Below, in pieces: positions 7,679 to 25,853 of a stretch of DNA of 64,000 bases (position 1 is the stretch's first letter; each line of letters starts with the position of its first letter). Both the position numbers and the translations under genes were made by a program. Source of the DNA: an uncultured Candidatus Saccharibacteria bacterium (lineage in GTDB: Bacteria; Patescibacteriota; Minisyncoccia; UBA6257; CAYRSR01); the NCBI GenBank assembly GCA_964427275.1, contig CAYRSR010000004.1, positions 2,769 to 66,768 on the forward strand. The letters run 5' to 3'. Under the pieces are notes generated by a model. It worked only from the letters and a program-made list of their open reading frames with translations. It did no database searches and was not told where the DNA came from.

Positions 7679-8974
7679 ATGAATAATCTAACCGGCTTAT
7701 TTTTTAAAACTTTAAATAGTGTTAAAAAGGATAAATTTTTAGTTAGTAGTGCTATTTTTTTTGGAGGCAGCCTTTTAGCAAGTGCTGGCAATTATCTTTT
7801 TCATTTTTTAATGGCTAGAATGTTAGCTATTGAAACTTATGGCGAGCTTCAATCTTTAATAGCAGTTTTTGTTATTATTGGTATTCCAGTTTCTGCTTTG
7901 TCTACTGTTTTAGTAAAATATACAGCTGACTTTAAGGCGAAGCAGCAGTTAGGTAAAGTTTTTAGCCTACTTTCTTTTTTTACTAAAAAAGCATTGTTTA
8001 TTGGAATAATATTTCTAGTAGTTTTTTTAATTTTTAATGGTTATATTGCAAATTTTTTAAAGTTAACTTCTGGCTTACCAGTAATGATTTTAGCTATTAG
8101 CTTCTTGGTAGTATTTCCACGTTCCATTAACTATGGCATTATAAGAGGATTAGAAAAATTTAAATTTGCTTCAATTGTTCTTGTTGCTGAAGTTTTTTTG
8201 AAGATAGTGTTGGCAGTATTGCTGGTAAAAATAGGACTTACTTTAAATGGAGTTGTTGGCGCTGTTGTTTTGGCTGGTGTGATTAGTTATTTTATTAGTT
8301 TTTTTCCTTTGAGGTATCTATTTAAAGAGAAAAAGGAAAAAATTGAAACTAGAAAAATTTTAAAATATTTTTTCCCAACTTTTTTTATTTTGTTGTTTAT
8401 AACCTTGCTTTATAATATGGATGTTGTTTTAGTTAAACACTTTTTTTCAGCTAAGACTGCTGGAGAATATGGAGCTCTGGCTGTAATTGGTCGAATTATT
8501 TTTTTTATTGGAGGGCCAATAGTATCGGTAATGTTTCCAATGACTGCTTCTGCCTATACCAGCAGAAGTAGCTCTACCAAAATTTTTAAAAAGAGTATTT
8601 TTTTGGTTAGCTTAGTTGGACTGATTGTTTTAGTTTTTTATTTTATTTTTCCAAATTTTGTTATTAAAATGTTGGTTGGCAGCAAGTTTTTAGCTATCGG
8701 CAAGTTTTTGGGTTGGTTTGGAATAGCAATGTTTTTATGTTCTTTGGTTAATCTGTTTTTGCAATATTTTCTTTCTATTGGTAAAACAAAGTGCGTTTAC
8801 TTGGTAGTAACAGGAGTATTGTTGCAGGTAGTGTTGATTTCAGCTTTTCATAATAGTTTATGGCAAGTTATCTTTATAATGAATTCGGTAATGTTTTTGA
8901 CATTAATGCTGTTGGTGGGGTATTATTTAAGGGTTAGTCGGCAAAAGGCTACGGTTATGAAGCCGGTATTGTGA
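7679..8974 (+). CDS. oligosaccharide flippase (Wzx/MOP-superfamily polysaccharide biosynthesis protein)
   Basis: 431 aa with ~12–14 TM helices, at the head of a glycosyltransferase cluster. Confidence 0.6.
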   Translation: MNNLTGLFFKTLNSVKKDKFLVSSAIFFGGSLLASAGNYLFHFLMARMLAIETYGELQSLIAVFVIIGIPVSALSTVLVKYTADFKAKQQLGKVFSLLSFFTKKALFIGIIFLVVFLIFNGYIANFLKLTSGLPVMILAISFLVVFPRSINYGIIRGLEKFKFASIVLVAEVFLKIVLAVLLVKIGLTLNGVVGAVVLAGVISYFISFFPLRYLFKEKKEKIETRKILKYFFPTFFILLFITLLYNMDVVLVKHFFSAKTAGEYGALAVIGRIIFFIGGPIVSVMFPMTASAYTSRSSSTKIFKKSIFLVSLVGLIVLVFYFIFPNFVIKMLVGSKFLAIGKFLGWFGIAMFLCSLVNLFLQYFLSIGKTKCVYLVVTGVLLQVVLISAFHNSLWQVIFIMNSVMFLTLMLLVGYYLRVSRQKATVMKPVL

Positions 8975-8996
8975 GGTGTAAAGAGTAAGGCGTAAT

Positions 8997-9416
8997 ATGG
9001 AAAATAATCAAAATAGAAAACCAATAACAAGCTTTAGAGATTTAGAAGTTTATCAAAATACTTACAAAGCAATGCTAATAGTGATGAAAGAAATTATATC
9101 AAAATTGCCTGATTCTGAGAAGTACGATCTAAAAGACCAATTAAGTAGATCTTGTAAGGCCATCCCGCGATTAATTGCAGAAGGATATGCAAAACGGCAC
9201 CAGAGAGCAGGATTTCAGAAATATTTAGATGATGCAATGGGCGAATGTAATGAAACTATTGTTAGTTTGGAACAATGTCGCGATATTTATGAGGTGGATA
9301 AAAGTTTGATTGATAGGTTAGTAGATGTTTATGACAAATCTGGAAGACAACTCTATAGATTGAGTATTGCCTGGGCTAATTTTAAAAGACGTCAAGCACG
9401 ACCATTGAAGAACTAA
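8997..9416 (+). CDS. four-helix-bundle protein (the so-called 23S rRNA intervening-sequence protein family)
   Basis: DLEVYQNTYKAMLIVMKEIISKLPDSEKYDLKDQLSRSCKAIPRLIAEGYAKR matches the TIGR02436-type four-helix-bundle family. Flanked by unusually GC-rich non-coding DNA. Confidence 0.6.
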   Translation: MENNQNRKPITSFRDLEVYQNTYKAMLIVMKEIISKLPDSEKYDLKDQLSRSCKAIPRLIAEGYAKRHQRAGFQKYLDDAMGECNETIVSLEQCRDIYEVDKSLIDRLVDVYDKSGRQLYRLSIAWANFKRRQARPLKN

Positions 9417-9538
9417 CAGTAACGAAATGTGTGTTTTGAAATCGTCAAATATTTAAAGGTTATGCTTACGAAGCCGCCAAACTTTACCGCTGAACGAAAC
9501 GGGCATCGTAACCCATAAACGTTAAACAATTTGCAGTT

Positions 9539-10519
9539 ATGAAAAAATTAATTTCAATTATAATTCCTGTTTACAACGAGGAGAAGAACATTCCTTTGGT
9601 CTATCAAGAGATATTAAAAATCTGGAGTGAATTAGAAAGTAAATATGATTATGAAATTATTTTTGTTGATGATGGAAGTCAGGATAAAAGTAGCGAAATA
9701 ATAGAAAATTTGGCTGAAGTTGATAAAAAAGTTAAGTATATTCAATTTTCTCGCAATTTTGGCAAAGAAATTGCTACTTCTGCTGGAATCTATTATTCCA
9801 AAGGTGATGCAGCAATTATACTTGATGCTGATTTACAACATCCTGTAGAGTTAATTCCAAAATTTATTGAAAAATGGGAAAATGGAGTTGATATTGTTGT
9901 AGGAATCAGACAGAAGAACAAAAAAGAAGGACTAATTAAAAGAGTTGGTTCATACTGGTTTTATAAGATAATGAACCTTATTGGAGAAACTAAAATTGTT
10001 CCGCGGGCAACTGATTATCGGTTAATTGATAAAAAAGTTATTCAAGAGTTTAATCGTTTTACTGAAAGAAATAGAATCACTCGAGGATTAATTGACTGGC
10101 TGGGATTTAAAAGAGATTACATTTATTTTAAAGCTAACCAGAGAAAGTTTGGTAAAGCTAGTTATAGTTTTTTAAAATTAGTTAAACTAGCTTTGTCTAG
10201 TTTTGTGTCTTTAAGTTTATTTCCCTTGAAATTTGCCGGGTATTTAGGAATCACTATCACTTTCTTTTCTGGTATTTTTGGGGTTTTTATTTTGGTTGAG
10301 AAATATATTTTGGACGACCCTTTAAATTTAAATATTACTGGCACTGCTTCTTTAGCAGTACTGATTTTATTTCTAATTGGCATAGTTTTAAGTAGTCTGG
10401 GTTTGATAACCTTGTATATTGCTAATATTTATAGCGAAGTTCTTAATAGGCCAATTTATGTGATTAAAAAAAAGAAAAATTTTAATTTAAAAGAAGATAA
10501 TAGGAAAACTAAAAATTGA
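9539..10519 (+). CDS. GT2 polyprenyl-phosphate sugar synthase (Dpm1/GtrB/ArnC-like) with C-terminal TM helices
   Basis: IIIPVYNEEKNI...VDDGSQD...DADLQHP GT-A core, two C-terminal TM helices, 326 aa. Confidence 0.75.
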   Translation: MKKLISIIIPVYNEEKNIPLVYQEILKIWSELESKYDYEIIFVDDGSQDKSSEIIENLAEVDKKVKYIQFSRNFGKEIATSAGIYYSKGDAAIILDADLQHPVELIPKFIEKWENGVDIVVGIRQKNKKEGLIKRVGSYWFYKIMNLIGETKIVPRATDYRLIDKKVIQEFNRFTERNRITRGLIDWLGFKRDYIYFKANQRKFGKASYSFLKLVKLALSSFVSLSLFPLKFAGYLGITITFFSGIFGVFILVEKYILDDPLNLNITGTASLAVLILFLIGIVLSSLGLITLYIANIYSEVLNRPIYVIKKKKNFNLKEDNRKTKN

Positions 10520-10571
10520 ATTTCTTTTTCTAGTAAAGTGCGGGTTTAAAAGAGTTTGAAGTTAAAATAAT

Positions 10572-11690
10572 ATGAAAATATTGTGGTTAACCTGGAAGGA
10601 TAGAAAGCATCCACTAGCTGGGGGTGCAGAAATAGTTAATGAAGAATTGGCTAAGAGATTAACTAAAAATGGTTATGAGATTATCTTTATTGTTAGTGGA
10701 TTTCCTGGTGCAGCTAAAAAAGAAATGATTAATGGTTATAAAGTAGTTCGCTTGGGAAATCGGTGGACAGTTTATTGGAGGGCATACCAATATTACAAAA
10801 AACACTTGTCTAATTGGCTAGATTTAGTAATTGATGAAATAAATACAGTTCCTTTCTTTGCAAAGTTTTACGTTAAAACGAAGAATATTTTATTCATTCA
10901 TCAACTTTGTCGGGAGATTTGGTTTTATGAAATGTTCTTTCCATTGAATTTAATTGGGTATTTATTAGAGCCTGTTTATTTATGGCTTCTGCGGGATAGA
11001 AAAGTAATCACTGTTTCCGAGAGCACCAAAAAAGATTTAATAAGGTACGGTTTTAAAAAAGAAAATGTTTATGTTATTTCAGAAGGAATAGAGATTGAGC
11101 CACTAAAAAATTTACCGTCGGTTAAAGAAGTTAAAGAGAAGAATCCAACAATTTTATTTTTAGGTACACTAAGAAGAATGAAAAGACCAGAACAGGTAAT
11201 TAAGGCTTTTGAACTTGTTAAAAAGAAGATAAAAAATTTAAAACTATGGATAGCTGGAGGAGGAAAAGGAAGATATTTTAAAAAGATAATGCGATTGATT
11301 AGAAACTCTAGGTATAAAAAAGATATTGTTTATTTTGGGAAAGTAAATAAAAAAAAGAAATATGAACTATTACTAAAGGCTCATTTACTTTGTGTTACTT
11401 CAGTTAAAGAAGGCTGGGGATTGGTTGTAGCTGAGGCTAATAGCCAAGGAACTCCAGCAATTGTTTACAACGTTGATGGCTTGCGGGATGCAGTGAAAGA
11501 TAATAAAACTGGTATTGTTTGCCAGCAAAATACTCCTGAAAATTTAGCTCAAAACATTATTGAATTATTGAGAAATAAAGAAAAATATGATTTTTTGAGA
11601 AAAAATGCTTGGGAACTATCAAAGGAAATAACTTTTGAAAAGAGCCTAGGACAGTTTAAAAAAATTGTTGAAGAAATAAAAAATGAATAA
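10572..11690 (+). CDS. glycosyltransferase family 4 (GT-B)
   Basis: C-terminal GT1/GT4 domain with an EGWGLVVAEANSQGTPAIV motif. Confidence 0.7.
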   Translation: MKILWLTWKDRKHPLAGGAEIVNEELAKRLTKNGYEIIFIVSGFPGAAKKEMINGYKVVRLGNRWTVYWRAYQYYKKHLSNWLDLVIDEINTVPFFAKFYVKTKNILFIHQLCREIWFYEMFFPLNLIGYLLEPVYLWLLRDRKVITVSESTKKDLIRYGFKKENVYVISEGIEIEPLKNLPSVKEVKEKNPTILFLGTLRRMKRPEQVIKAFELVKKKIKNLKLWIAGGGKGRYFKKIMRLIRNSRYKKDIVYFGKVNKKKKYELLLKAHLLCVTSVKEGWGLVVAEANSQGTPAIVYNVDGLRDAVKDNKTGIVCQQNTPENLAQNIIELLRNKEKYDFLRKNAWELSKEITFEKSLGQFKKIVEEIKNE

Positions 11691-12525
11691 TCAACCATTA
11701 GTTTCAATAGTAATACCAACAAAAAACTCAGGAAGATTTTTAGAAAGGTGTTTAGATTCAATAAAGAAACAGACTTATAGAAACATTGAAATAATAGTTG
11801 TTGATAATAAGAGTGATGATAATACAAGAAAAGTTGCTAGAAGATATACTGATAAAGTTTTTGTAGTAGATGCAGGGGAAAGAAGTGAGCAAATAAATTT
11901 CGGCATTAAAAAAAGTAAAGGGAAGTATGTTTATAGAGTAGACTCAGATTTTATTTTAGATTCTAATGTGGTTAAAGAGGCAGTTGAAAAGTGTGAAAAA
12001 GAAGGATATGATGCAATTTGCATTCATAATACTTCAGATCCTACCGTTAGCTTTTGGGCAAGAGTAAGAAAGTTAGAAAGAGATTGTTACAAGGGTGATG
12101 AGTTAAATGTAGGGGCAAGATTTTTTAGAAAGGATATTGTTAAAGAAATTGGAGGTTTTGATGAAAGGTTAGTAGCGGCGGAAGATTATGATTTTCATAA
12201 CCGGCTTTTAAAAGCAGGTTATAAAATTGGTAGAATTAAAGCGGAAGAAATTCACTTAGGGGAGCCAAAATCTTTGTGGGAAGTTGCTAAGAAACACTAT
12301 TATTATGGAAAGACAATAGTCAGATTCATTGAAAAAAATAGAGGGAGGGGAATAAAGCAACTAAATCCTATAAGACCTGCTTTTATCAGACATTGGAAAG
12401 AATTCGCAAGACATCCACTTTTAACTTTCGGCTTTATAGTTTATCAGTTGGTTAAATATTTTTCAGGAGGACTAGGATATTTAAAAGCAAAATTAGGTTG
12501 TAAGGTTTATAATAAGCCAAAATAG
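11683..12525 (+). CDS. glycosyltransferase family 2
   Basis: VSIVIPTKNSGRFLERCLDSIKKQTY...VVDNKSDD GT-A signature. Confidence 0.7.
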   Translation: MNNQPLVSIVIPTKNSGRFLERCLDSIKKQTYRNIEIIVVDNKSDDNTRKVARRYTDKVFVVDAGERSEQINFGIKKSKGKYVYRVDSDFILDSNVVKEAVEKCEKEGYDAICIHNTSDPTVSFWARVRKLERDCYKGDELNVGARFFRKDIVKEIGGFDERLVAAEDYDFHNRLLKAGYKIGRIKAEEIHLGEPKSLWEVAKKHYYYGKTIVRFIEKNRGRGIKQLNPIRPAFIRHWKEFARHPLLTFGFIVYQLVKYFSGGLGYLKAKLGCKVYNKPK

Positions 12526-12561
12526 GGCTTAGGTATAAATTTTTGAAGATAAATTAAACAA

Positions 12562-13479
12562 ATGACCAACCAACCATTAGTTTCTGTAGTTATTCCTACA
12601 TGTAATAGAGAGAGGAAGCTGACCAGACTGGTGAGTTCAATTTTAAACTCTAACTATCCTAAGAATAGATTAGAAATAATTGTAATTGATGATAATTCTA
12701 CAGATGCAACATATAGGGATATCGAAAAATATCCAAATATTACAATCGTAAGGAATAACAAAAAACTTTTTCCATCAAAGTTAAGAAATATTGGGATAAG
12801 AAAGGCAACCGGAAAGTATATTCTTTTTATTGATGATGACAATGTGGTTGAAAAAGACATGATTTTGAATCTGGTTTGTTTTATGGAAAATCATAAATCT
12901 GTGGGAATAGTAGCACCCTTAATGCTATACTATGGAAGTAATCTTATTTGGTGTGCTGGAATTAAAAGGAATATGCTTACCAGCCTTACCAGTTTTTTGC
13001 TTAATGGCAAGGACTATACAAAAGTAAAGCTACCAAAGATAATAGAGTCTGATGATTTTCCAAATTGTTTTATGACCAGAAGAGATATAATTCTGAAGTA
13101 TGGTATTTATTTTGATGAGATACTTTTTCCTATTCATTACGAAGAATCGGACTTTTGTCGAAAGGTTCATTCAAAAGGTTATAAAATAGTTATGTTCTCT
13201 AACGCTAAGGTTTGGCATGATGTTGGACTACCAGGAAAGCCTCATAATATATTTGATAACCAAAGCCCTCAGCGTTTATTTTACACTGCCCGTAACAGAA
13301 TACTATTTCACAAAAAATATACTCCCTGGTATAAATATATCTTGTTTCTTTTCTTATTTTTACCACTTCTAACTTTCTATTATCTTTATAAAGGTATTGT
13401 ATCTAATACAGAGAATAAAATCTTAAAGATAACTTCGTTCCTTAATGGTGTCTGGAAGGGCATTTTTATGTCAGTATGA
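12562..13479 (+). CDS. glycosyltransferase family 2 with C-terminal TM segment
   Basis: VSVVIPTCNRERKL...VIDDNSTD...DDDN, with a hydrophobic C-terminus. Confidence 0.7.
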   Translation: MTNQPLVSVVIPTCNRERKLTRLVSSILNSNYPKNRLEIIVIDDNSTDATYRDIEKYPNITIVRNNKKLFPSKLRNIGIRKATGKYILFIDDDNVVEKDMILNLVCFMENHKSVGIVAPLMLYYGSNLIWCAGIKRNMLTSLTSFLLNGKDYTKVKLPKIIESDDFPNCFMTRRDIILKYGIYFDEILFPIHYEESDFCRKVHSKGYKIVMFSNAKVWHDVGLPGKPHNIFDNQSPQRLFYTARNRILFHKKYTPWYKYILFLFLFLPLLTFYYLYKGIVSNTENKILKITSFLNGVWKGIFMSV

Positions 13480-14615
13480 AGATAGCTATAGTTTCAAAGT
13501 ATGCTCCTGCTGATACTGGCGGTTTAGAATCTGTGGTAAATGGAATAATAAGTGTTATTAGAAGGTCAGGTTTTAATTTTGATATAACTGTCTTTTATCA
13601 GAGAAAAAGAAGAGGTGATAAATTTACTTCTGAAGAATATAAGTCCAAAGAGGTAATGGTGCCGGACATACCAGTTGTTTCGGAGGTTATTTATAATTTT
13701 ATCTGTGGAATAAAATGTGCTTCGGGGAACTACGATATTGTACATACTCATGGTGTTACAGGTGCTGGATATGCTCTTATAAGAAGATTTATTAGAGATA
13801 AAGCCAAATTTATTCATACTTTCCATGGAATTTCTTACAAGTCTTTAGAGTGCTATGTTAAAAGATTTGGATTTCCAGGAAATGTATTGGTTCAAATCTA
13901 TAGAACTATCATGTCTTACCTTGAAAAATTAGCCGGAAGGAAATGTGATGTTGCTGTTGCGGTATCTGAGGGAGTTAAAAGGGACCTGGTAAAGTATTAT
14001 GGAATACCTGAAAGTAAAATAACTGTTATACATAATGCTGTTGATACAGAAGTTTTTTACCCGATGTCGAAAGATAAAGCCAAAGAGCTATTGAAGCTGG
14101 ATAAGAGCAAAAAGTATATTCTTTTTGTGGGTAAAGAAGCTTTTAGAAAAGGGATGGACATAGCTATTAATGCTATGAGGTATTTAAAATTTGACAATAT
14201 TGTGCTATTAATAGTAGGTCCAGCTAAGATTGACTTTAAAGAAGATAACATTATAAGCTTAGGAGAGCTTTCAAGAAAGAAAATGGTTTTTGTTTATAAT
14301 ACTGCAGAGGTTTTAATATTACCTTCAAGATACGAAGGGCATCCTATTACAGCCCTGGAGGCACTATCTTGCGGTCTTCCGTTGATTGTATCTAGAGAGT
14401 CAAATGTAGAGATTATTAATAAGAATCAAGGAATTGTAATTAATGAAAATAAGCCAGAATTATTTGCTACTGAAATAAAAAAGCTTTTGAAAAGTGAAGA
14501 ATTAAAAGAAATGTCAAACTCGTGTCGAAAGCTAGCAGAAAAATATTCGGTTAATAATCAATACAAGAAATACTTAGAATTATATTTGAGTTTTTATGAA
14601 TCAAGAAACTATTAG
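13476..14615 (+). CDS. glycosyltransferase family 4 (GT-B)
   Basis: The EGHPITALEALSCGLPLIVS motif is characteristic of GT4 retaining glycosyltransferases. Confidence 0.75.
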   Translation: MKIAIVSKYAPADTGGLESVVNGIISVIRRSGFNFDITVFYQRKRRGDKFTSEEYKSKEVMVPDIPVVSEVIYNFICGIKCASGNYDIVHTHGVTGAGYALIRRFIRDKAKFIHTFHGISYKSLECYVKRFGFPGNVLVQIYRTIMSYLEKLAGRKCDVAVAVSEGVKRDLVKYYGIPESKITVIHNAVDTEVFYPMSKDKAKELLKLDKSKKYILFVGKEAFRKGMDIAINAMRYLKFDNIVLLIVGPAKIDFKEDNIISLGELSRKKMVFVYNTAEVLILPSRYEGHPITALEALSCGLPLIVSRESNVEIINKNQGIVINENKPELFATEIKKLLKSEELKEMSNSCRKLAEKYSVNNQYKKYLELYLSFYESRNY

Positions 14616-15321
14616 CTCCTGGTACAATAATTTTTATACCCGCAAAGAAGTAAATAAGAAATTGTCCCCATGGAGGCGTACAACATTTCAGCTTATCTGT
14701 GAACTAGGCTTGAAAGGTAAAATACTGGATGTTGGTTGTGGTGATGGAGGGTTGCTATTTGAACTAATTAAATCTTCAATGTTTGGTAAGGAAGATATTT
14801 ATGGTATTGATATATCTAAATCTGCGATTAATATTTCACGAGCCCGATTGGGAATACCAGAGGAGCATCTTAAAACTTATGATATTGAATCTAGTGAATT
14901 ACCGTTTCGGCAGGAATTTTTTGATATAGTGGTAATGAATGATGTTATAGAACATCTTCAACATCCTTTTAAGAGCTTACCTAAGACACTAAAAATGCTT
15001 AAAGTAAAAGGCCACTTAGTTATTTCTTTCCCTAATTATACAAATTTACCTTGGCTTGCACTTAGAATATTGGCAGAGAAATTAAAAAGACCGGGGTGGA
15101 TAGTCCTTCAACCTGTTGACCATATATTTTTTTATAGAGGACTTAAGGATTTACTAGTTAAAAGGTTTGGTTTAAAGTTTATTACTAGCAGGGGCAGTGT
15201 CTTTTTCCCGCCGCTATTATATAAATTTGAACCTCGGATTTTCAGTTTAGTTTTGAATAAACTTGGATTAGCTTTTCTTTCATTTCACCCTGTTTTAGTT
15301 TTTAAGAAAAATGAGAAATAA
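14596..15321 (+). CDS. class I SAM-dependent methyltransferase
   Basis: ILDVGCGDGGLLFEL motif I and a VVMNDVIEHL motif. Confidence 0.75.
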   Translation: MNQETISSWYNNFYTRKEVNKKLSPWRRTTFQLICELGLKGKILDVGCGDGGLLFELIKSSMFGKEDIYGIDISKSAINISRARLGIPEEHLKTYDIESSELPFRQEFFDIVVMNDVIEHLQHPFKSLPKTLKMLKVKGHLVISFPNYTNLPWLALRILAEKLKRPGWIVLQPVDHIFFYRGLKDLLVKRFGLKFITSRGSVFFPPLLYKFEPRIFSLVLNKLGLAFLSFHPVLVFKKNEK

Positions 15322-16903
15322 TACTATTATCGTAATTTCTGGTTCTTCAGGTTCGGGTAAGACAACTATATCCAGAAAACTATACTTTACCTTGTCTACT
15401 TGCGGCTTGGATGCTGTATATAGAGAGTGGGAAAATAATCCTGATGATTATTTCTTACTTAAAATACCGCTGAAGTTATTAATAAAGTTTTTTCCTAGAA
15501 TACATAAATCCAATCTGGAGCGTTTGGTTCAGGGACCTAAAAACAATAAGTTTCCATTAAGGTTTAAGATATGGCCATTTTTTATCTGGTTAGATCGATT
15601 GGCCGAGATATTTTACTTGAGATTTTTTAAGCCGCATAATGTAACAGTAATTCATAGATACATTCATGGAGTATTGATTGCTCTCCTTGGATATTATGGA
15701 TGGGGAAAAAATGAACTCATAGACAAGCTTTATTTTCCAAAACCAGATATTTTCATTATGTTGGATACTACACCAGAAGAGGTTATGAAGCGTGGCGCAG
15801 ATTATCCGACCCTTAAAGATGCTGAATATTGGAGAAAAAATTTCCTAAATATTGCAGATAAAAATGGTTATCCAATAGTTGACTCTTCGTATGATGTAGA
15901 AACTACATTTAGAAATTGCTTAAGAGTAATTGTTTCAAGAATGATGAAAAATCAGGAAGATATGGTTCTGCACCTACTTAGTGATCCATATAACTACTAC
16001 GATAGGGAATTATTAGAGAGAATAGATTTTAGAAAGCTGGATTATAATTATTTGTACTCCTATGTATTAGAACTTGGAATTGGCTTTCAGGCACTTGGCT
16101 CATTGCTTGAGTATGATATACCAGAAATATGGAGGAATAAGTTCAGTAATAAATTACTTGAACTTGAAAATTATTCCAGAAAAGTATCGAGTGCAATCAA
16201 AGAAATTCACAATCTTTTTAAGCAAAACAATATTAAATATGTAATGTTTAAGACCAATAGGCCATATAAGCATGTTTCTAGGGATATTGATATTTTGGTA
16301 GATGATTATAAGAAGGCATTTTCTGTACTTAAAAAAGATGGATGGGTTACAGACCTGGAGCAAATTCTACTTAGTGAAGTTCATTTAAAAAAAGGCAATA
16401 TAGTATTGGACTTGCATGATAAAATAGAAAGGTTACCTAAGAAACTTCTTCTTGAAAATGTTATTAAAAATAAAGAAGAAATTAATATTCCAAAGCCAGA
16501 ATTAGAGGTACTATCAATATTACTTGAATGTATAGAGGATTTGCAAATGGATTTAGAAGATATTCACTATATCAGGGGATTGGTTAAAGAGAATGATATA
16601 AACTGGAAGGAAGTATACAATCTTTCCAAAGTTTTAGGTGTTTATAAAAAAATAAATCAACTTCTTTCAATTGTTAGACTTAAAGACATTTTTTATTATT
16701 CTGGAAAATTAAGTAGAAAATTACCCGAGATTAAAGACTCTGGAATTGACTTTCAAAAGAGTTTAATATCTTTAGTTTATCAATTTAGATTAGCAAAAGT
16801 TAAAAAGAGATTATTATTTTTAAAATTAGCAATTAGACGCTTAATAAGCAGTCCTTTTAAGACAATTAGGGCGGGCTTTAAGAGATATATTTTTAGAAGG
16901 TAA
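15311..16903 (+). CDS. P-loop kinase domain fused to NTP_transf_5-like nucleotidyltransferase domain protein
   Basis: N-terminus IIVISGSSGSGKTTISRKL (Walker A; dNK/thymidylate-kinase-like). C-terminal half carries the YKHVSRDIDILVDDY nucleotidyltransferase signature. Confidence 0.45.
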   Translation: MRNNTIIVISGSSGSGKTTISRKLYFTLSTCGLDAVYREWENNPDDYFLLKIPLKLLIKFFPRIHKSNLERLVQGPKNNKFPLRFKIWPFFIWLDRLAEIFYLRFFKPHNVTVIHRYIHGVLIALLGYYGWGKNELIDKLYFPKPDIFIMLDTTPEEVMKRGADYPTLKDAEYWRKNFLNIADKNGYPIVDSSYDVETTFRNCLRVIVSRMMKNQEDMVLHLLSDPYNYYDRELLERIDFRKLDYNYLYSYVLELGIGFQALGSLLEYDIPEIWRNKFSNKLLELENYSRKVSSAIKEIHNLFKQNNIKYVMFKTNRPYKHVSRDIDILVDDYKKAFSVLKKDGWVTDLEQILLSEVHLKKGNIVLDLHDKIERLPKKLLLENVIKNKEEINIPKPELEVLSILLECIEDLQMDLEDIHYIRGLVKENDINWKEVYNLSKVLGVYKKINQLLSIVRLKDIFYYSGKLSRKLPEIKDSGIDFQKSLISLVYQFRLAKVKKRLLFLKLAIRRLISSPFKTIRAGFKRYIFRR

Positions 16904-16925
16904 AATTTATACATAAAACAATTAA

Positions 16926-19900
16926 ATGATACCAATACTATCAAAATTACTGAATTGGATTAATTCTAAAGACAGGCGAGATTATTTTTTAGCTGGGATA
17001 ATTATATTAGCTCTTGTTTTTTTAGAATACCGGCTACTTATCTTTGAAAGTATTAACTACATAGGAAAAGGATATTTTAAATTCTCAAAAATCCCGTTTA
17101 CTTTAAAAGAATCATTTCAGTTTTTGCCCTTAATTTTAATAGATTGGGCTTCGCTTCCAGGAGGATGTGCTGTAACATTGCTAGCCGGACTTTATCATCT
17201 TTTGGGAGGATTAGCTATCTTTGCATTTATAAGAATCTACTTAAAAGACCTTTTTAAGGAAAATAATCTCTTTTTACCTGCTTTTCTTGGAACTTTATTG
17301 TTTATGTTTTATCCCTGGAACACCACAGGTGATAACTTTCCCACGTTGGTTATGGTTAGATTTTTATTTCCATTGGCCCTTCTTTGTGCATTTAAGGGTA
17401 TAAAACATAATTCTACCTGTGCATTACTGCTTTCCGGAATAATAATTTCACTTGCAACTTTAGCTGACCCACGTGCTATTGTGTTTTTTATTCCAATTAT
17501 TTTTTTTGTAATTTTACTGCCACATTTATTGATAAGGGAAACAGGAAATCTCAAGTTATACCTTTTTCGATTTATAGGTCTTTTAGTTATTTCTACAATT
17601 TTTTCTTCTCTTGAGATTGCATATAGAGTTTTAAAATCATTCTCAGCTGGAAAAGCAAGTATTCCTACAACAGTGGCATCTGCATTTAATCCAGATTCAT
17701 TTATTCCAAATTTTAAATATGCAGATTTAATATCAACTTTTCAGGGTATTTCTTTCCTTGCAACAGGAGAACAATTTTTAAAAATTCTAAAAGAAATTCC
17801 GTTTCTTTATAACTTGTTTTTAATAGCTCCATTATTAGCAGTTGCTGTTATTTTTATGATTCTTCTCAAATATCATCGAACTCAGAAGTTGAGGGCTCAT
17901 ATTTTATCATTGGTTCTTTTTATATTAATAGTTATTGGACTATTTTCTAGATTGGTTCCGAATAAGTTGCCACTATTTCCAAGAATAGCTTGTAGTTTTG
18001 TAGGGTCTAAAATACCAGGTATCATAACTTCTCTATTTTTATTGTTCCGAACCGAAAGATTTTTGAATCTTTCAATGATGATTTTTTTGGGATTATCAGC
18101 TGGAATAAGCATAAAACTATTGCGGAATAGTCGAAATTCTTTCTTTAAAATACTTTTTGTTAGCGGTGTTTTAGTTTCTGTGGTAGTTGTGTGGGGTATT
18201 CCAGTTATCATGGATGGACACGGACTGGTTAATAGAGGAGGAATAATTTTTGAGATTGACGAAGAATCTTTAGCGTTGTCAAAGGTAATTAGTGATATAA
18301 AACCATACTCAGTGATAGATAAATCAATTCCTTTACAAAAAGGATCTGGCGGATTACCAAATGCACATTTCTTATCTAATGTTGAAGCTGGTGTAAAGCA
18401 ATTTCTGGTAAGGTATAGCACAGAAACATCTAAAGGATTTAGAAGTCCAATTCTAATTGATAAGGATTATGATTTTTTGGCGCACTTGTTAAATCAGATG
18501 GGAGTTAAATACTTAATTTTGAATGGATATAGGGCTGAGCCAAATGACCCAGCAATGTTTAAAAAAGAACTTAACCAATCTCCCTATTTTAGATTTAGAA
18601 GTAAGTCAGGTAGTGTATATGGCTATGAAATCCAGAAAGAAATAAAACCCAAAATTGCTGATGGCCTGTTTGTTCTAGGCGGGCTGGAGGATTATCGAAA
18701 AGCATATCCGTTTTTTGAAAAACAAAACTTAGATGTTGCCCCAATATTTCTTGATGCTCCAGTAGATTTTACTGTTTTAAAAAGATTTCACTTTCCATTG
18801 CTAGTAAGTACTCATAAAACCAAAACTGACTTAATAGCAAGCTTTTGTATTTCACATAAAGACGCAGAAATACTAACTCCTGCAAAGTGGAAAACTGGAA
18901 CTTGGAATAGATTTGTTCGCTGGTCTCCGGGGTACATTATGGATACAATAAGCGGAATGTGGTCTCACATACTGCCAGACCTTATAAACTATGAATGGAG
19001 TTACACCTATAGACCGGACTATGGCAATGTCTTTGTAATAAATGCTGAAAGTTCAATTTCAACCGAAGTAAATTTAAATCCCGGTAAATATAGAGTTTTG
19101 ATACGTGTCTTAATGAATCCTAGAGGAGGTGTTATAAATTTAAAATTAGGAGGTTTCTCTAAGGATATTGTTACAAAATGGGATTATGATAGCAGTGAGT
19201 TTATCTGGAAAGACCTTGGAGTATATGATTTTACTGGTTCTAAACTTAAGGTCATTCTGAGAAGTTTTGAAGGGGTAAATGCAGTTAATTTAATAGTTGC
19301 TATTCCACAAAAGGATTGGGAAGAAATAACAAAGAAGGTAAAACAATTTATAAAGGAGCGTGAAATTATATATATTGTGGATCCAGAGCGACAGAGAACT
19401 AATCCTACAGATGGTTCTGTTGCAACAGAAATGAAATTACTAAAATCAGGTAGTTATAAAGCTTCATCCCTTTCTAATGTAAAGTTTGAAATAATTCAGG
19501 ATTCAATACTACAGTCAAATAACCAAATTACATACTTTCAGGGTAAATATATAACCATTTCTTTTCCTAAATATAGAGATATATTGTTTTCTTCTTTTTT
19601 TGAAAAAGAAGAAGGTTTGTGGACTGATCTAGATTCTAGATTTTCAGTCTCCTATGTTAATGATGGATATGTAGGCAAATCAATTCTTGTTTCAACTACC
19701 ACTCAACAACCTGGTAGCTGGAGCTGGATTAAGGGACCATTAATTGAGGTTAAACCTAATCATAAATATCAGTTTAAATCTGCTATGAAGTGGGAAAATG
19801 TTGTTCAATCTCACATATCTATTGATGGTATTAAAAAAGATGGTTCAGTTGTTAGATTGGGTCTTTTGCCTTCAGGAAAAGATGGTGAATCAGATTGGGT

Positions 19901-20450
19901 TGAGTATTCAACCATTAAAGAAATTCCTTCGGATATAGTAAAGGTTAGGTTTGTGCTTAATGCTGGCTGGGCTGAAAAAAGTGATAAGCCGGCTAAAACA
20001 TGGTTTGATAACATATTGATAAAAAGACTGAAGACCTCAAAAAAAGGTAATCAGGCCATATTGCTTCATACTTCTGAATTAGGTCAAATTTATAATAACT
20101 CAGATTTCAAAATAGTTTCCTATAAGATTAATGAATACAACAAGACTCATAAAGGATATGATATCAGTTTGAAAGGAAGTGGTGAAAAAGTCTTGTCAAT
20201 TCCAGAAATTTATGATGGCATGTGGAAATTAGAAAATTCAACATTTCAATCTATAGCTGTTCCTGTGTATTATATCCTTAATGGTTTTGCGATAAACTCC
20301 TTTGACAATCAAATTCATCATTTTACTCTTTATAACACTAAAGAAAGATTGGATAGAATATTAGAAAGTTTTTACTTTACTAGTTTAATTTTCATATTGT
20401 TTGGAATGATTGTTTTTTATTGGATTAAAAGAAGTCAATTTTTTAAATGA
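16926..20450 (+). CDS. large polytopic membrane protein with ~700-aa extracytoplasmic domain and C-terminal TM anchor (putative GT-C-type glycosyltransferase/polymerase)
   Basis: 1174 aa. ~12 TM helices within residues 1–430, a long soluble region with a CBM-like C-terminal module (GSWSWIKGP...VRFVLNAGWA...WFDNI), and a final TM helix. Confidence 0.4.
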   Translation: MIPILSKLLNWINSKDRRDYFLAGIIILALVFLEYRLLIFESINYIGKGYFKFSKIPFTLKESFQFLPLILIDWASLPGGCAVTLLAGLYHLLGGLAIFAFIRIYLKDLFKENNLFLPAFLGTLLFMFYPWNTTGDNFPTLVMVRFLFPLALLCAFKGIKHNSTCALLLSGIIISLATLADPRAIVFFIPIIFFVILLPHLLIRETGNLKLYLFRFIGLLVISTIFSSLEIAYRVLKSFSAGKASIPTTVASAFNPDSFIPNFKYADLISTFQGISFLATGEQFLKILKEIPFLYNLFLIAPLLAVAVIFMILLKYHRTQKLRAHILSLVLFILIVIGLFSRLVPNKLPLFPRIACSFVGSKIPGIITSLFLLFRTERFLNLSMMIFLGLSAGISIKLLRNSRNSFFKILFVSGVLVSVVVVWGIPVIMDGHGLVNRGGIIFEIDEESLALSKVISDIKPYSVIDKSIPLQKGSGGLPNAHFLSNVEAGVKQFLVRYSTETSKGFRSPILIDKDYDFLAHLLNQMGVKYLILNGYRAEPNDPAMFKKELNQSPYFRFRSKSGSVYGYEIQKEIKPKIADGLFVLGGLEDYRKAYPFFEKQNLDVAPIFLDAPVDFTVLKRFHFPLLVSTHKTKTDLIASFCISHKDAEILTPAKWKTGTWNRFVRWSPGYIMDTISGMWSHILPDLINYEWSYTYRPDYGNVFVINAESSISTEVNLNPGKYRVLIRVLMNPRGGVINLKLGGFSKDIVTKWDYDSSEFIWKDLGVYDFTGSKLKVILRSFEGVNAVNLIVAIPQKDWEEITKKVKQFIKEREIIYIVDPERQRTNPTDGSVATEMKLLKSGSYKASSLSNVKFEIIQDSILQSNNQITYFQGKYITISFPKYRDILFSSFFEKEEGLWTDLDSRFSVSYVNDGYVGKSILVSTTTQQPGSWSWIKGPLIEVKPNHKYQFKSAMKWENVVQSHISIDGIKKDGSVVRLGLLPSGKDGESDWVEYSTIKEIPSDIVKVRFVLNAGWAEKSDKPAKTWFDNILIKRLKTSKKGNQAILLHTSELGQIYNNSDFKIVSYKINEYNKTHKGYDISLKGSGEKVLSIPEIYDGMWKLENSTFQSIAVPVYYILNGFAINSFDNQIHHFTLYNTKERLDRILESFYFTSLIFILFGMIVFYWIKRSQFFK

Positions 20451-20454
20451 TTCT

Positions 20455-20865
20455 ATGAGAGAGATAAAATTAACTATCAGGATACCAGAATTACTCGAAA
20501 TAAAGAAGTTTATAAAACTTCAAGTTATCAAGATTTTTAAAAGAACCAAAGAAGACATAATTAACAAGAAGGTATATACAGTTTTATTGATAGTCATTTT
20601 TGGCTTATTGTTTTGGAAATTTGCTTTTAAAGTAGCTATTTTATGGACAATCTTTTGGCTTTTTTTGTTCTATAACTGGGAAGATAGGGTTTTAGCTGGA
20701 ATTGCTTTGGTTCTTTTAGTTGGTTGCCCGATATTTTTGATTACTGGAAGAAAAGTTATTGCTGAACAAATAGCAATTTATGCTTATTACTTTATAGTGA
20801 TGACTGTAGCTTTGCAGATTGCAAAATTATGTGGCTTAGACAGAAGAATAAGATTGCATATTTAG
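20455..20865 (+). CDS. small membrane protein (3–4 TM)
   Basis: Hydrophobic 136-aa product between two large membrane proteins. The ORF-track start (20410) overlaps the upstream gene, so the start is taken at the ATG at 20455. Confidence 0.4.
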   Translation: MREIKLTIRIPELLEIKKFIKLQVIKIFKRTKEDIINKKVYTVLLIVIFGLLFWKFAFKVAILWTIFWLFLFYNWEDRVLAGIALVLLVGCPIFLITGRKVIAEQIAIYAYYFIVMTVALQIAKLCGLDRRIRLHI

Positions 20866-22487
20866 TTTATACTTTTTTAGCAATTTCTATTTTATTACCC
20901 CTGTTGAAACCAGGATATATTTTCGCTATGGATATGGTTTTTACTCCTCGTTTAAGATGGCCATCAGAATTTAATTTTCCCGGTGCTGTTTTATATTTGT
21001 TAAACTTTATTTTACCCAGTCAGATTATTCAAAAAATTCTTTTGTTTTTAGTCTTGTTTTTGGGTGGTGTCGGGATGCACAAATTAGTTCCAGTAAGGAA
21101 TGAGTTTGCTAAATACTTTGCCGGCATTTTTTATATTTTTAATCCATGGATTTATTCCAGGTTTTTGTATGGGCATTTATACTTATTAATTGCTTATGCT
21201 CTGATGCCATTTGTAGTTAAAACAATTTTTAAATTTTTGGACCAGATAAATTTCAAAATTGCCCTGAAGTTAAGTTTATGGCTGATTTTAATTGGTTTTA
21301 TCAGTCATCATTTTATTTTTATGGCAGTTTTATTTTTTGTGATTTCTGTTCTGGTTTATATTTTAAAGAACTTAAAAGATTTGCCTAAAATTTTAGAAAT
21401 TTTAAAATTTACAACTTTAATTGGATTAATTTTTTTAATTTTATCAAGCTGGTGGATTGCTCCTTATTTCAATAAAAGTTCTCCTCAAGGGCAATTTATT
21501 CAGCGGTCCATTGGTTTAAGTGACCTAAAGGCTTTTCAAACTGAACCGGATGCAAAGTATGGGGTATTACTAAATGTTTTGGCAATGTATGGCTTTTGGG
21601 GGGATAGGACCGAACAATATGTGGTTCAGAAGGATGTAGTTCGAGGCTGGTTTTGGTTATTTTTGATTATCCTAGGGCTGGTAATATTTGGCGCAATAAG
21701 TAAGTTAAAGGAATATAAGGCAATTGTTTTAATTCTAATTGGAATTATTTCCTTTGTTTTATCAGTTGGATTTGCTTATCCACCATTTAGGTTATTGATA
21801 AATTTTTTAAATCAGAATCTTTTTATTTTTAAGGGTTTTAGGGAGTCCCAGAAGTTCAGTGCTTTGTTAGTTTTAGTTTATGCTTATTTTGGAGCTTTGG
21901 GAATTAACAGCATAGTTGAAGGTTTAAAAGTTAGAAAGTTAGAAGGTTTAAAAGTTAGAAAGTTAGAAAGTTTAAAAATGTTTTTGTTAGCTTTTTTGAT
22001 TATTTTGCCAATTCTTTATTCTCCAATGATGTTTTGGGGCTTTAGAGGACAGCTTTCTGTTTCTGATTATCCATCAGATTGGTTTAGGGCAAATGAAATT
22101 TTAAATCAAGACCAAGATAATTTTAAGGTTTTGTTTTTCCCCTGGCATCAATATATGTTATTTAGTTTCACTAATGGTAAAGTAATTGCCAATCCGGCAC
22201 CAAATTTTTTTGATAAACCGGTTATTGCTGGTGATAATATGGAATTAGCAGAAATTTACACTCAGAGTAGAAGACCTATATCTAAATTTATTGAAAATGA
22301 AATTCTGGCTAAAAGAGAAATCATTAATAATTTAGGTCAGATACTTAAACCTCTGAGTATCAAGTATGTTATATTAGTTAAACAAGAAGATTGGCAAACC
22401 TATGGTTTTTTGGATTGGCAAACTGATTTAAAACAAATTTATGATTCTAAGCATTTAAAAATTTATCAAAATCAAAGCTGGAGATAA
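20829..22487 (+). CDS. polytopic membrane protein, GT-C-like glycosyltransferase candidate
   Basis: 552 aa with >10 TM helices and an in-frame tandem repeat EGLKVRKLEGLKVRKLESLK. Lies at the downstream end of the glycan cluster. Confidence 0.4.
   Translation: MWLRQKNKIAYLVYTFLAISILLPLLKPGYIFAMDMVFTPRLRWPSEFNFPGAVLYLLNFILPSQIIQKILLFLVLFLGGVGMHKLVPVRNEFAKYFAGIFYIFNPWIYSRFLYGHLYLLIAYALMPFVVKTIFKFLDQINFKIALKLSLWLILIGFISHHFIFMAVLFFVISVLVYILKNLKDLPKILEILKFTTLIGLIFLILSSWWIAPYFNKSSPQGQFIQRSIGLSDLKAFQTEPDAKYGVLLNVLAMYGFWGDRTEQYVVQKDVVRGWFWLFLIILGLVIFGAISKLKEYKAIVLILIGIISFVLSVGFAYPPFRLLINFLNQNLFIFKGFRESQKFSALLVLVYAYFGALGINSIVEGLKVRKLEGLKVRKLESLKMFLLAFLIILPILYSPMMFWGFRGQLSVSDYPSDWFRANEILNQDQDNFKVLFFPWHQYMLFSFTNGKVIANPAPNFFDKPVIAGDNMELAEIYTQSRRPISKFIENEILAKREIINNLGQILKPLSIKYVILVKQEDWQTYGFLDWQTDLKQIYDSKHLKIYQNQSWR
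21918..21977 (+). repeat. 24-bp tandem repeat (x2.5) inside CDS
   Basis: gaaggtttaaaagttagaaagtta repeated perfectly, then a partial copy. Confidence 0.8.
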
Positions 22488-23498: not shown

Positions 23499-25853
23499 AT
23501 GCTTAGAAAATTATCAGTTTTACTGATTGGAATTTCGCTGATTTTTAGTTTAGTCCCGGAAATTAATGCTCAAACAGCCGGAGAAACAAATGATACAAAT
23601 TTAATGCTGGATGAGGAAGTTGGCGCTGAAGACCTGGAAATATCCGAGCCAAAGATTTTACCGGATAGCAGGTTATATTTGTTTAAAAATTTTACCAGAG
23701 CAATTAGGAGGTTTTTTACTTTCAGTTCGTTGGCTAAGGCTGAGCTGAATTTAAGATATGCTTCAGAAAAATTGATTGAAGCCGAGAAGCTAGCCCGAAA
23801 AGGAAAGAAGGATTTAGCCGAAAAAGTTTTGGAAAGATATAGCGCCAACTTTGATAAAGCAAAAGAATTACTGGAAAAACAGAAAGATAATCCCAGAGCC
23901 AGAAAGATTCTGGAAAAATTAATTGACCGGGGAATCAAGCACCAGAAAGTTTTAAGTTTAATTCAGAAAAATCTTCCCTTAAATAAATCGGGGAAAATAA
24001 TAGGACTTAAAGCAAAAATAGCTAAACGATTGGGAGAATTTGGAGAAAAAGATCCCGAGAAGCTTAAAGAAATTATTGAGAAACAGAAAGGTTCAAAATT
24101 TAGAAACATTAAAAACATTCAGGTTTTACTAAGAGTAAAAGAACAAGTTCCAGAAGAAGCAAAAGATAAAATAGAAAGTGTAATTGAAAATCAATTAGAA
24201 AAACTTAAGTCCGATTTAGAAGAATTAGCTCCAGAAGAAAGAGAAAAAGTTAAATCCTATCTTCAGAATCTTTCTGGAAATGAAACCAGGTTACTTGAGG
24301 TAATTTCAAGAATAGAGAATTTAGATTTACCCGAGAAAATTCAGGAAAAACTTGGTGAAGCTAAAGAGAAAGTAATTGAAAGATTTGAAAATAGATTGAA
24401 AAAACTTGACGAACAAAATTTAGAAGATTTAAAACAAGAGTTATTTAAACCTTTGGAAGAAGCAGAATTATCTAAGCTGAAAGTAACTAAAGAGCTGATT
24501 AAAAAATTACCGGTTCAAAGAATTGAAAGAATTTTACCTGTTGAACAAAAAATTAAGCAAAAGTTTGCTAAAAAAATTGAACAGCTTTCAGCAGAAAAAA
24601 GAGAAGAATTTGTTCAAAGACTTGGTAGATATCAGGACGTTCAAGGACTAGAAATTTTAAAAGAAATTGAAGAATTTGTTCCTGAAGAAGGAAAAGATGT
24701 TTTGAAAAAAGCTAGAGAAAGAATAAAAACAAGAATCAAAAATGAACTGGAAGAAACTTCAGAATCTGACTTAGGTAGAAAAGTGCAACGAATATTTAAG
24801 AATCGTTTAGAAGGACTGGAAATAGTTGAAGAATTACCAATTTCTTCTCCGGTTAAAGAAAAGACAAAAAAGTTGTTAATTAAAGGAATAGAAAGAAAGC
24901 TTCAGAATGTAGAAGACCCCGAAGAGCTAAACCAGATTAAACAGAGATTGAAAGCTCGAAGAGCAGAGATAAAAAGCATCTCTCCCCAGTTTATCGAGAA
25001 ATTGGAAAGAGCCGAGCGTACGGCTGAAGGAAGAATAACCAAAGAATTGGTTGAGAAAAAGATTGAACAGGCTAAAAAAATGTTTTCAGAATTAAAAGGG
25101 AAGGTTGAGAAATTAACTGATGAACAGAAACAACTACTTCCTAGATATCTTTTCTTAAGTTTAGAATTGATTAAAAAAGAAATAAATCAATCAGTTTCAG
25201 CTTTAGAACAAGGAAAGGTGAAGGTTGCCTTTACTACAATTCAGTCAGTTTTAGGTAGGATAAGAAGTTGTTTTGCTATGCTATTAAGGAGTTTAACAGA
25301 AGTACCACTAGTCCCCGAAAAACCACAACAGCCAGGTAAAAAAATAGTATGTCCAGCTTTATATGACCCAGTTTGTGGGATAGATGGAATAACCTATCCA
25401 AATCGATGTGTAGCAGAAAGAATTCATCGAGTGAAGGTAGCTTATCGAGGAAAATGTAGAGAACAAAAGCTAACCTGCGAGCAAAAGTGTAAGATTTTAG
25501 GTTATCTTAAAGGAACTTGTAGAAGTTATCCTATTTATCCAAGAGCAAGAAAATGTTTGGAAAATGAGATTTATGTTGGTTCTGCTGTTGATTGTCAAGC
25601 GGATACTTCTAAGTTGGGAATTGGTTATGGATGCTGTTGTTTAATTAGAAAGCCTCAAAAGAAGGTTATTGAAGTTCCTAAGCCTGGTTTTATTTCACCC
25701 GAACCAGTTCCAGTAAAGGAATTAATACCATTTTTTGAAAGACCAGTTTCTGAACCAGTTGAAGGGGAAGTAAAATCAATTAAAAAGCCAACAATAAAAG
25801 CTGAACCGATTGAAAAGAAATTGGAACTAGAACCTGAATCTTTATTAGAGTAA
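23499..25853 (+). CDS. secreted coiled-coil protein with C-terminal Kazal-like domain and second Cys-rich module
   Basis: Signal peptide, ~560 aa of K/E-rich heptad coiled coil, then CPALYDPVCGIDGITYPNRC...GKC (Kazal signature PVCGxDGxTYxNxC), then an 8-Cys module and a Pro/Glu-rich tail. Confidence 0.6.
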   Translation: MLRKLSVLLIGISLIFSLVPEINAQTAGETNDTNLMLDEEVGAEDLEISEPKILPDSRLYLFKNFTRAIRRFFTFSSLAKAELNLRYASEKLIEAEKLARKGKKDLAEKVLERYSANFDKAKELLEKQKDNPRARKILEKLIDRGIKHQKVLSLIQKNLPLNKSGKIIGLKAKIAKRLGEFGEKDPEKLKEIIEKQKGSKFRNIKNIQVLLRVKEQVPEEAKDKIESVIENQLEKLKSDLEELAPEEREKVKSYLQNLSGNETRLLEVISRIENLDLPEKIQEKLGEAKEKVIERFENRLKKLDEQNLEDLKQELFKPLEEAELSKLKVTKELIKKLPVQRIERILPVEQKIKQKFAKKIEQLSAEKREEFVQRLGRYQDVQGLEILKEIEEFVPEEGKDVLKKARERIKTRIKNELEETSESDLGRKVQRIFKNRLEGLEIVEELPISSPVKEKTKKLLIKGIERKLQNVEDPEELNQIKQRLKARRAEIKSISPQFIEKLERAERTAEGRITKELVEKKIEQAKKMFSELKGKVEKLTDEQKQLLPRYLFLSLELIKKEINQSVSALEQGKVKVAFTTIQSVLGRIRSCFAMLLRSLTEVPLVPEKPQQPGKKIVCPALYDPVCGIDGITYPNRCVAERIHRVKVAYRGKCREQKLTCEQKCKILGYLKGTCRSYPIYPRARKCLENEIYVGSAVDCQADTSKLGIGYGCCCLIRKPQKKVIEVPKPGFISPEPVPVKELIPFFERPVSEPVEGEVKSIKKPTIKAEPIEKKLELEPESLLE

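Follow-up and report, generated by a model that had tools for sequence, protein, structure and literature searches.

Kinases and nucleotidyltransferases (NTases) are joined in several bifunctional enzymes, including HldE, Bacteroides FKP and PAPS synthase, all of which make soluble activated donors for glycan or sulfate transfer. A kinase is also coupled to a methyltransferase in the O-antigen terminator WbdD, which acts on a glycan in an ABC-transporter pathway, has a protein-kinase fold and carries no NTase domain. The NTP_transf_5 family (PF14907) is a sizeable family without an assigned activity, and prior clues to its function come only from peptide natural products. In the pseudomycoidin lasso-peptide cluster, PsmN, described as an 'uncharacterised NTP transferase', puts a hexose on the phosphoserine phosphate made by the kinase PsmK, and its D134A/D136A double mutant, the equivalent of the DxD motif, is inactive (PMC6993621). 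During fosfazinomycin biosynthesis, the kinases FzmF and FzmK extend a phosph(on)ate to a di- or triphosphate, and FzmU, a member of the NTase superfamily, ligates this triphosphate, a surrogate of a nucleoside triphosphate (NTP) (PMC13622209, preprint). Finally, in the phosphonate family GCF 540, the genes on either side of Ppm (phosphoenolpyruvate (PEP) mutase) encode a thymidylate kinase and PF14907 (PMC8942020). The theme common to these cases is an NTase-fold enzyme acting on the phosphoryl group of a partner kinase. Here we describe a gene from a 64,000-nucleotide stretch (the window) of contig CAYRSR010000004.1, belonging to an uncultured Candidatus Saccharibacteria bacterium, in which a kinase of the thymidylate kinase (TMK) type is fused to a PF14907 domain within a glycan gene island. 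Whereas the pairing of a kinase with a PF14907-type transferase is known, what is new here is that the kinase derives from TMK, is joined covalently to the transferase and is devoted to glycan clusters. We found no paper on this architecture, and it has no name in the source annotations.

The fusion gene (Table 1) encodes a 530-aa protein and has no open frame opposite it, the reverse strand being full of stops. The identical protein was called on four independent metagenome contigs, the nearest homologue, P0001, shares 41% identity and is collinear with it along 99% of the length, and 44 fused relatives were collected. These observations ruled out an assembly or frameshift artefact, and the two-domain gene, a TMK-type kinase joined to a PF14907 NTase-fold domain, is real. 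The two motifs on which the initial annotation had based its assignment, the Walker A string VISGSSGSGKTTISRKL and the signature RDIDILVDDY, were both located in the protein, at residues 8-24 and 324-333, respectively. No hydrophobic or transmembrane (TM) segment was predicted by a simple hydropathy scan. An AlphaFold model, generated with an alignment of 22 family members, reached a pLDDT of 88.6 and a pTM of 0.86. The C-terminal basic tail that follows the two domains may serve as a peripheral membrane anchor.

The N-terminal region had been described as small nucleotide- or nucleoside-kinase-like; it is of the P-loop nucleotide-kinase type, and more exactly it is TMK-derived with the dTMP residues lost. 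The best 50 fold matches of the AlphaFold model in the PDB (Foldseek) were all TMKs aligned on the N-domain (target TM 0.60-0.73), and a phmmer search of PDB sequences matched Aquifex TMK at E 1e-4, in two pieces. Scores of this half against TMK profiles were sub-threshold, both for PF02223 (25.5 bits vs a cut-off of 27) and for TIGR00041 (24.9 bits vs 83.25). A hidden Markov model (HMM) of the kinase subfamily, built without the window clade (the window protein, P0001 and P0002), matched the window N-domain end to end. The same model matched the housekeeping TMK of the window with 54 bits in two pieces, leaving HMM positions 36-95, the acceptor region, unaligned.

Across the subfamily, the P-loop (consensus GxDGSGKTT), the DRY strand, the PKPD strand and the LID arginine are retained. 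Residues G11, G14, G16, K17 and T19 are invariant in the 22 fusions. Position 13 of the P-loop is Ser in the window protein and Asp in most relatives and in the TMK consensus (GxDGxGKTT); the Asp of the DRY motif is replaced by His (H115) in the window clade only, with R116 retained. The dTMP-binding REPGGT loop and S/T..AYQ segment were absent in an alignment with the window TMK and an approximate Aquifex TMK sequence, the latter pieced together in part from the PDB-search alignment and thus not a database-verified reference. The acceptor-binding region (residues 36-105) is rich in aromatic and hydrophobic residues and includes W88-P89 and D95-R96; the window clade retains the TMK-like Y37-R38-E39 and D95-R96. 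The N-domain has in common with TMKs the fold, the P-loop (with Ser for its Asp), the xRY strand (with His for the Asp), the PKPD strand and the LID arginine, and differs from them in its sub-threshold scores, lost dTMP motifs, rebuilt acceptor region and joining to glycan enzymes. A second housekeeping TMK was rejected as an identity on account of these scores and lost motifs and of the true TMK at 1721-2362. Judged by its sequence, the N-domain evolved from a TMK yet is no thymidylate kinase, and its acceptor would be something other than dTMP. In TMKs, the counterpart of R116 clamps the acceptor phosphate, and the usual acceptor of TMK-type kinases is a phosphate, not a sugar hydroxyl. By analogy, the fact that R116 has been kept is a hint of a phosphate-bearing acceptor.

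Assignment of the C-terminal half to NTP_transf_5 was borne out by the PF14907 profile (Table 1), which scored 44.2 bits on the isolated C-half and matched 25/25 sampled C-domain relatives. In the AlphaFold model, the order of elements in this domain is helix-strand-(DxD strand)-helix-three-strand, as in the Pol-beta-type NTase core. D325 and D327 lie at the start of strand 326-330 and D367 on strand 364-369, the positions expected for catalytic carboxylates of this fold, and the predicted two-metal DxD...D site is intact. Standalone PF14907 proteins share the DxD and the third Asp with the fusion, which differs from them by its covalent kinase. A C-domain profile search found no sequence relative in the PDB even at E <= 10, and a lower-quality model compared with PDB folds again matched almost only TMKs and brought up no NTase-fold neighbour.

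The occurrence of the two domains was surveyed more widely. Word-indexed homology searches returned only 1, 1 and 8 proteins, and swamping by P-loop words or low-complexity sequence is suspected, whereas HMMER, run exhaustively against 1.84 billion cluster representatives, retrieved 450 hits at E <= 1e-3. Among the best 150 of these 450 hits were 59 long proteins, of which 54 matched Thymidylate_kin (PF02223; best E 8e-26) and 39 matched NTP_transf_5. Architectures were then counted for the HMMER hits together with open reading frames (ORFs) from GTDB loci, all classed with domain HMMs derived from 22 fusions. Kinase-then-NTase fusions (44) were accompanied by 5 fusions in the reverse order, which formed one clade in a rough neighbour-joining tree, and by 8 tandem kinases, 3 kinase-glycosyltransferase (GT) fusions, 57 short kinase-only proteins and 36 short NTase-only proteins. 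The initial annotation had described PF14907 as usually standalone; among these relatives the fusion is not unusual and was the commonest architecture (44 vs 36 short NTase-only proteins).

Pfam confirmed several of these arrangements, namely an N-terminal GT4 joined to the kinase in L019 (9129-10937) and P0144, a kinase with a C-terminal GT2 in P0033, a tandem kinase in P0077 and an NTase-then-kinase protein in P0121. Elsewhere the two halves are separate genes, and these lay adjacent or one gene apart in similar GT clusters rather than among unrelated neighbours. In L018, the NTase gene starts 2 nt past the end of the kinase gene; in L019, it abuts the GT4::kinase gene; and in L023, a single GT4 gene stands between the two. 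Two domains that are joined, split and swapped in order in this way provide classical evidence of activities contributing to a single process. A scan of genome contigs with patterns specific to the window clade gave no match, and no relatives were found in annotated plasmid and phage collections.

The glycan setting proposed for the gene was confirmed in the window. All presumed genes at 7679-22487 are on the + strand, and they comprise a flippase, five GT2/GT4 enzymes, a methyltransferase dependent on S-adenosylmethionine (SAM), the fusion and GT-C-like proteins (Table 1). The most constant neighbour of the fusion is the large membrane protein directly downstream (16926-20450, 1174 aa), which has a weak PMT_2 match. 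Among the island genes no NDP-sugar (nucleoside diphosphate-sugar) pyrophosphorylase was recognisable, and a simple hydropathy screen of the whole window found no polytopic protein of the size of an initiating phosphoglycosyl transferase (WecA/MraY or WbaP type). The initiating enzyme of the island may be encoded elsewhere in the genome.

Related loci were found in Nitrososphaera, Nitrosomirales, three Thermoproteota, Bathyarchaeia, Nanohalarchaeota, the archaeal metagenome-assembled genome (MAG) L010 and one MAG labelled Gammaproteobacteria; L010, an NCBI MAG, carries Pelota and RpoN. By our tally, GT genes flank the module in 15/17 informative loci. GT2/GT4 genes flank it in the window, L001, L008 and L010-L023, and standalone PF14907 members sit in the same kind of GT cluster. 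A large polytopic protein is encoded no more than two genes downstream in ~11/14 loci. Two of these large proteins (L019 and L013) passed the Pfam GT-C_AftD cut-off of 26, with 45.5 and 44.1 bits, and other relatives of the 1174-aa protein gave weak lectin-like or carbohydrate-binding module (CBM)-like matches. A small protein (112-151 aa, ~4 TM segments) directly follows the big GT-C in the window (20410-20865), L010 (14612-14950) and L019 (14264-14632), and could be a GtrA-like flippase of lipid-linked sugars. In most related loci a methyltransferase adjoins the kinase or lies near it; L014, for example, has a standalone kinase followed by a methyltransferase and then a GT-C. B12-binding radical-SAM enzymes occur in related clusters that contain the NTase or the split pair (L018, 5986-7545; L021, 3053-4480 and 8128-9396; L022, 1866-3293), which hints at unusual methylation chemistry in these glycans.

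The island at 9539-22487 is syntenic with the archaeal clusters (L012-L019, L010). Of the GT enzymes of the window, GT2b has 56% identity with a protein of Nitrosomirales and GT4a has 40% with one of Thermoproteota, and the translation genes of the window (LepA, RF-1/PCRF, TrmD) are bacterial markers. Taken together, this suggests that the entire glycan cluster was transferred between archaea and bacteria.

The described systems resemble the fusion to differing degrees. PsmK/PsmN likewise combines a P-loop kinase with a transferase, described as an NTP transferase, that works after the kinase, modifies the phosphate it has installed and needs its DxD. Unlike the fusion, that pair consists of an HprK-like kinase and a separate transferase, acts on a peptide serine and belongs to a cluster for a ribosomally synthesised and post-translationally modified peptide (RiPP). 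No HprK-like kinase and no RiPP genes (precursor, RRE, cyclase) were found near the fusion, whose kinase is TMK-like and whose neighbours are GTs, a methyltransferase and GT-C proteins; a role as a RiPP tailoring enzyme was rejected for this lack of RiPP genes. The chemistry of FzmF/FzmK/FzmU would suit a TMK-derived kinase with an NTase, FzmU being described at the superfamily level (IPR043519). That system differs in that FzmF is an ATP-grasp enzyme and the acceptor is a peptide hydrazide rather than a glycan, and phosphonate genes were absent from the window. With HldE, FKP and PAPS synthase the fusion shares the covalent design logic only, both of its domain folds being unrelated to theirs, and Pfam and NCBIfam scans detected no ribokinase- or GHMP-type kinase and no cytidylyltransferase- or GlmU-type NTase domain in it. 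WbdD resembles the fusion in pairing a kinase with a SAM methyltransferase for work on a glycan; in the window, the methyltransferase gene shows translational coupling with that of the kinase, and related clusters have one as well.

As no substrate was identified by the analysis, a mechanism was drawn from anatomy and precedent. The analysis establishes what the two domains are, that their catalytic motifs are conserved, that the domains are genetically coupled and that they lie in a glycan cluster; their activity, the sequence of their reactions, the acceptor and the added group are inferred. We tentatively propose, with a confidence slightly short of even, that the fusion is a two-step phospho-modification module working on an intermediate of the glycan pathway. 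It would be a soluble bifunctional enzyme of the island's surface-glycan pathway, in which the kinase domain would have kept its ATP-binding and phosphoryl-transfer apparatus, acquired a rebuilt acceptor pocket and ceased to use dTMP. The two domains would act in succession on one intermediate. Using ATP, the kinase would place a phosphate on its acceptor or lengthen one already there, the acceptor being a sugar, a sugar-phosphate or a lipid-linked glycan. At this phosphate, the PF14907 domain would then perform chemistry of the nucleoside monophosphate (NMP)-transfer type, giving a substituent linked through a phosphodiester or pyrophosphate. The same moiety would probably be modified by the translationally coupled methyltransferase, and the finished lipid-linked glycan would be flipped and then handled by the downstream GT-C enzymes.

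This proposal is favoured by the catalytic residues kept across 22-59 relatives (G11/G14/G16/K17/T19, R116, R161, D325/D327 and D367/H369), by the domain assignments and the departure of the kinase from housekeeping TMKs, by the fused and split arrangements, by the GT surroundings with the kinase-GT fusions and the GT-C_AftD-type proteins, and by the precedents of PsmK/PsmN, FzmF/FzmK/FzmU and GCF 540. Several observations count against it. Within the sequence available, the kinase occurs alone in L014 and L020 and the NTase alone in L021/L022, a sign that either one is probably functional by itself. In the window clade, S13 and H115 replace two acidic kinase residues that TMKs and the rest of the subfamily keep, and acidic residues occupy the place of the His-rich helix AHSIFQHHY of archaeal NTase domains. 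The proteins of this clade may accordingly be less active than the rest of the family, or differ from it in activity or specificity. In addition, PDB fold and profile searches yielded no solved structure near enough to the NTase domain to suggest a ligand, and no biochemically characterised member was found in the PF14907 literature. The initial annotation had proposed phosphorylation followed by nucleotidylation of a sugar or glycan. The kinase-NTase fusion in a glycan cluster stands, with nucleotidylation being one of several compatible chemistries. A 'sugar kinase' is an assumption, since the acceptor of a TMK-type kinase is normally a phosphate and the dTMP residues are lost; nucleotidylation is only one option, because the group that PsmN adds to a phosphate is a hexose, and what FzmU transfers is a triphosphate surrogate made by kinases.

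A more specific form of the chemistry, which we regard as unlikely, is that the fusion serves cell-surface glycans as a pseudo-NTP ligase independent of nucleotides. The kinase would treat a sugar- or alkyl-phosphate as TMK treats dTMP, converting X-P to X-PP and perhaps X-PPP, and the PF14907 domain would then treat this surrogate as an NTase treats an NTP and move X-P onto a glycan hydroxyl or polyprenyl phosphate. This would yield phosphodiester decorations, or even start a lipid-linked glycan, with neither a conventional NDP-donor nor a phosphoglycosyl transferase being needed. If true, fosfazinomycin chemistry would extend to the envelope glycans of archaea and bacteria, and PF14907 would gain a function.

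Taken literally, the proposal of the initial annotation is donor activation, in which a free sugar or a small alcohol would be phosphorylated by the kinase and turned by the NTase into an NDP-linked donor for the island GTs, comparable in logic to HldE, FKP or LicA/LicC. Kinase-NTase fusions that make activated donors are a known design (HldE, FKP, PAPS synthase), the island has no recognisable NDP-sugar pyrophosphorylase and both catalytic sites look intact. However, both folds are unlike those of every known sugar kinase/pyrophosphorylase pair, and we know of no TMK-fold sugar kinase and no Pol-beta-fold sugar-1-phosphate nucleotidyltransferase. The fusions of the kinase to GT4 or GT2 and the basic tail are also easier to reconcile with action on a glycan under construction at the membrane than with a pathway for soluble precursors, which leaves donor activation doubtful. 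The LicD-family phosphotransferases share the NTase fold, and a LicD/fukutin-like transfer of X-phosphate from CDP-X or UDP-X to the glycan would release NMP for the TMK-like domain to recycle. Such re-phosphorylation would relieve inhibition by the product in a cell whose nucleotide metabolism is minimal, and it agrees with an NMP-kinase fold that has kept the phosphate-clamping R116 and LID R161 and, in the window clade, the TMK-like Y37-R38-E39 and D95-R96. We consider it distinctly unlikely, as the residues by which TMK recognises base and sugar are lost, TMK, nucleoside diphosphate kinase (NDK) and adenylate kinase are already encoded in the window and a Pfam scan (E <= 1) gave no match to LicD/fukutin (PF04991) in the fusion. 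It would also leave unexplained the kinase fusions to GT2 and GT4, which release NDP rather than NMP.

The changes at S13 and H115 and the missing NTase His motif of the window clade could alternatively mean that one or both domains are degenerate, and that the protein is largely non-catalytic, serving the GT/GT-C machinery as a scaffold that senses nucleotides or as a regulator of chain length. Retention of the Walker A Lys/Thr, R116, R161, the DxD and the third Asp, in the window protein as in the family, makes this quite improbable. Furthermore, the substitutions are constant within the clade rather than random, which suggests altered specificity, not decay. Pol-beta NTases and P-loop kinases also occur in defence and toxin-antitoxin systems, and the fusion might be a nucleotide-metabolism, toxin-antitoxin or anti-phage enzyme that merely sits in the island. 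We judge this highly improbable: PADLOC defence profiles returned no system and three weak matches to the P-loop alone (E >= 8.7e-4), which is generic noise, and relatives were lacking in the phage and plasmid collections. Moreover, the start of the fusion overlaps the upstream methyltransferase, and the glycan-cluster context is kept across distant lineages and both fusion orders.

With respect to PF14907 as a whole, its commonest partner in one large branch is the rebuilt TMK-type kinase, fused in either order or adjacent. The conserved cluster around it (GT2-GT4-GT2, methyltransferase, AftD-like GT-C) is common to Thermoproteota, ammonia-oxidising archaea, Bathyarchaeia, Nanohalarchaeota and the bacterium of the window, which resembles members of the candidate phyla radiation. 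The fusion is a compact, single-polypeptide target for learning the function of PF14907, and it could reveal a phosphate-linked decoration of little-known envelopes. Should kinase-built NTP surrogates be used, they would constitute a new route to phosphodiester linkages in glycans.

Table 1 Coordinates of the fusion gene, its domains and motifs, and neighbouring genes in the window.
Feature	Position (nt)	Strand	Remarks
Kinase-NTase fusion ORF	15311..16903	+	ATG to stop, 530 aa/codons
N-terminal kinase domain, residues 1-213	15311..15949	+	TMK fold; subfamily HMM 147.5 bits
Walker A/P-loop GSSGSGKTT (G11-T19)	15341..15367	+	
Rebuilt acceptor-binding region, residues 36-105	15416..15625	+	Subfamily-specific; no alignment to true TMK
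H115-R116-Y117, counterpart of TMK 'DRY' motif	15653..15661	+	Arg kept
R161, LID-type arginine	15791..15793	+	Invariant in 59 relatives
NTP_transf_5 (PF14907) domain	15950..16756	+	Helical N-part and Pol-beta-type alpha/beta core
PF14907 Pfam match, residues 270-455	16118-16675	+	E 7.9e-11, 42.4 bits vs gathering cut-off 31.2
F313-K314-T315 strand-loop, in place of NTase hG[GS] motif	16247..16255	+	K314 nearly invariant
D325-I326-D327, DxD of NTase fold	16283..16291	+	Invariant in 22 fusions
D367-L368-H369, third carboxylate strand	16409..16417	+	D367 and H369 nearly invariant
Basic helical C-terminal tail, residues 483-530	16757..16900	+	Net +5 to +7 per 18 residues; low pLDDT
Bona fide TMK of the window	1721-2362		PF02223 163.5 bits
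Wzx/Polysacc_synt-type flippase	7679..8974	+	Head of island
23S-rRNA-IVP (intervening-sequence) family protein, PF05635	8997-9416	+	68.9 bits; between flippase and first GT
Five cytoplasmic glycosyltransferases (GT2, GT4, GT2, GT2, GT4)	9539..14615	+	Upstream of fusion
SAM-dependent methyltransferase	14596..15321	+	Stop overlaps fusion start by 11 nt
1174-aa membrane protein	16926..20450	+	Downstream partner; ~11 N-terminal TM, ~700-aa soluble part, C-terminal TM
151-aa small protein	20410..20865	+	~4 TM segments; no Pfam family
552-aa polytopic GT-C	20829..22487	+	AftD-like N-terminal domain, 30.7 bits

Three further genes of the window were recorded. An AF1548-like/Mrr-type protein with a restriction-endonuclease fold (6846-7676) is encoded at the island's upstream edge, with lepA on one side of it and the flippase on the other. 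The NDK (3823-4407) is 194 aa long and its Pfam match is split in two stretches, which suggests that it carries an insertion relative to typical NDKs. Finally, a 784-aa protein (23499-25853) combines DUF5667 with a Kazal-type serine-protease-inhibitor domain, which is unusual for a bacterium.

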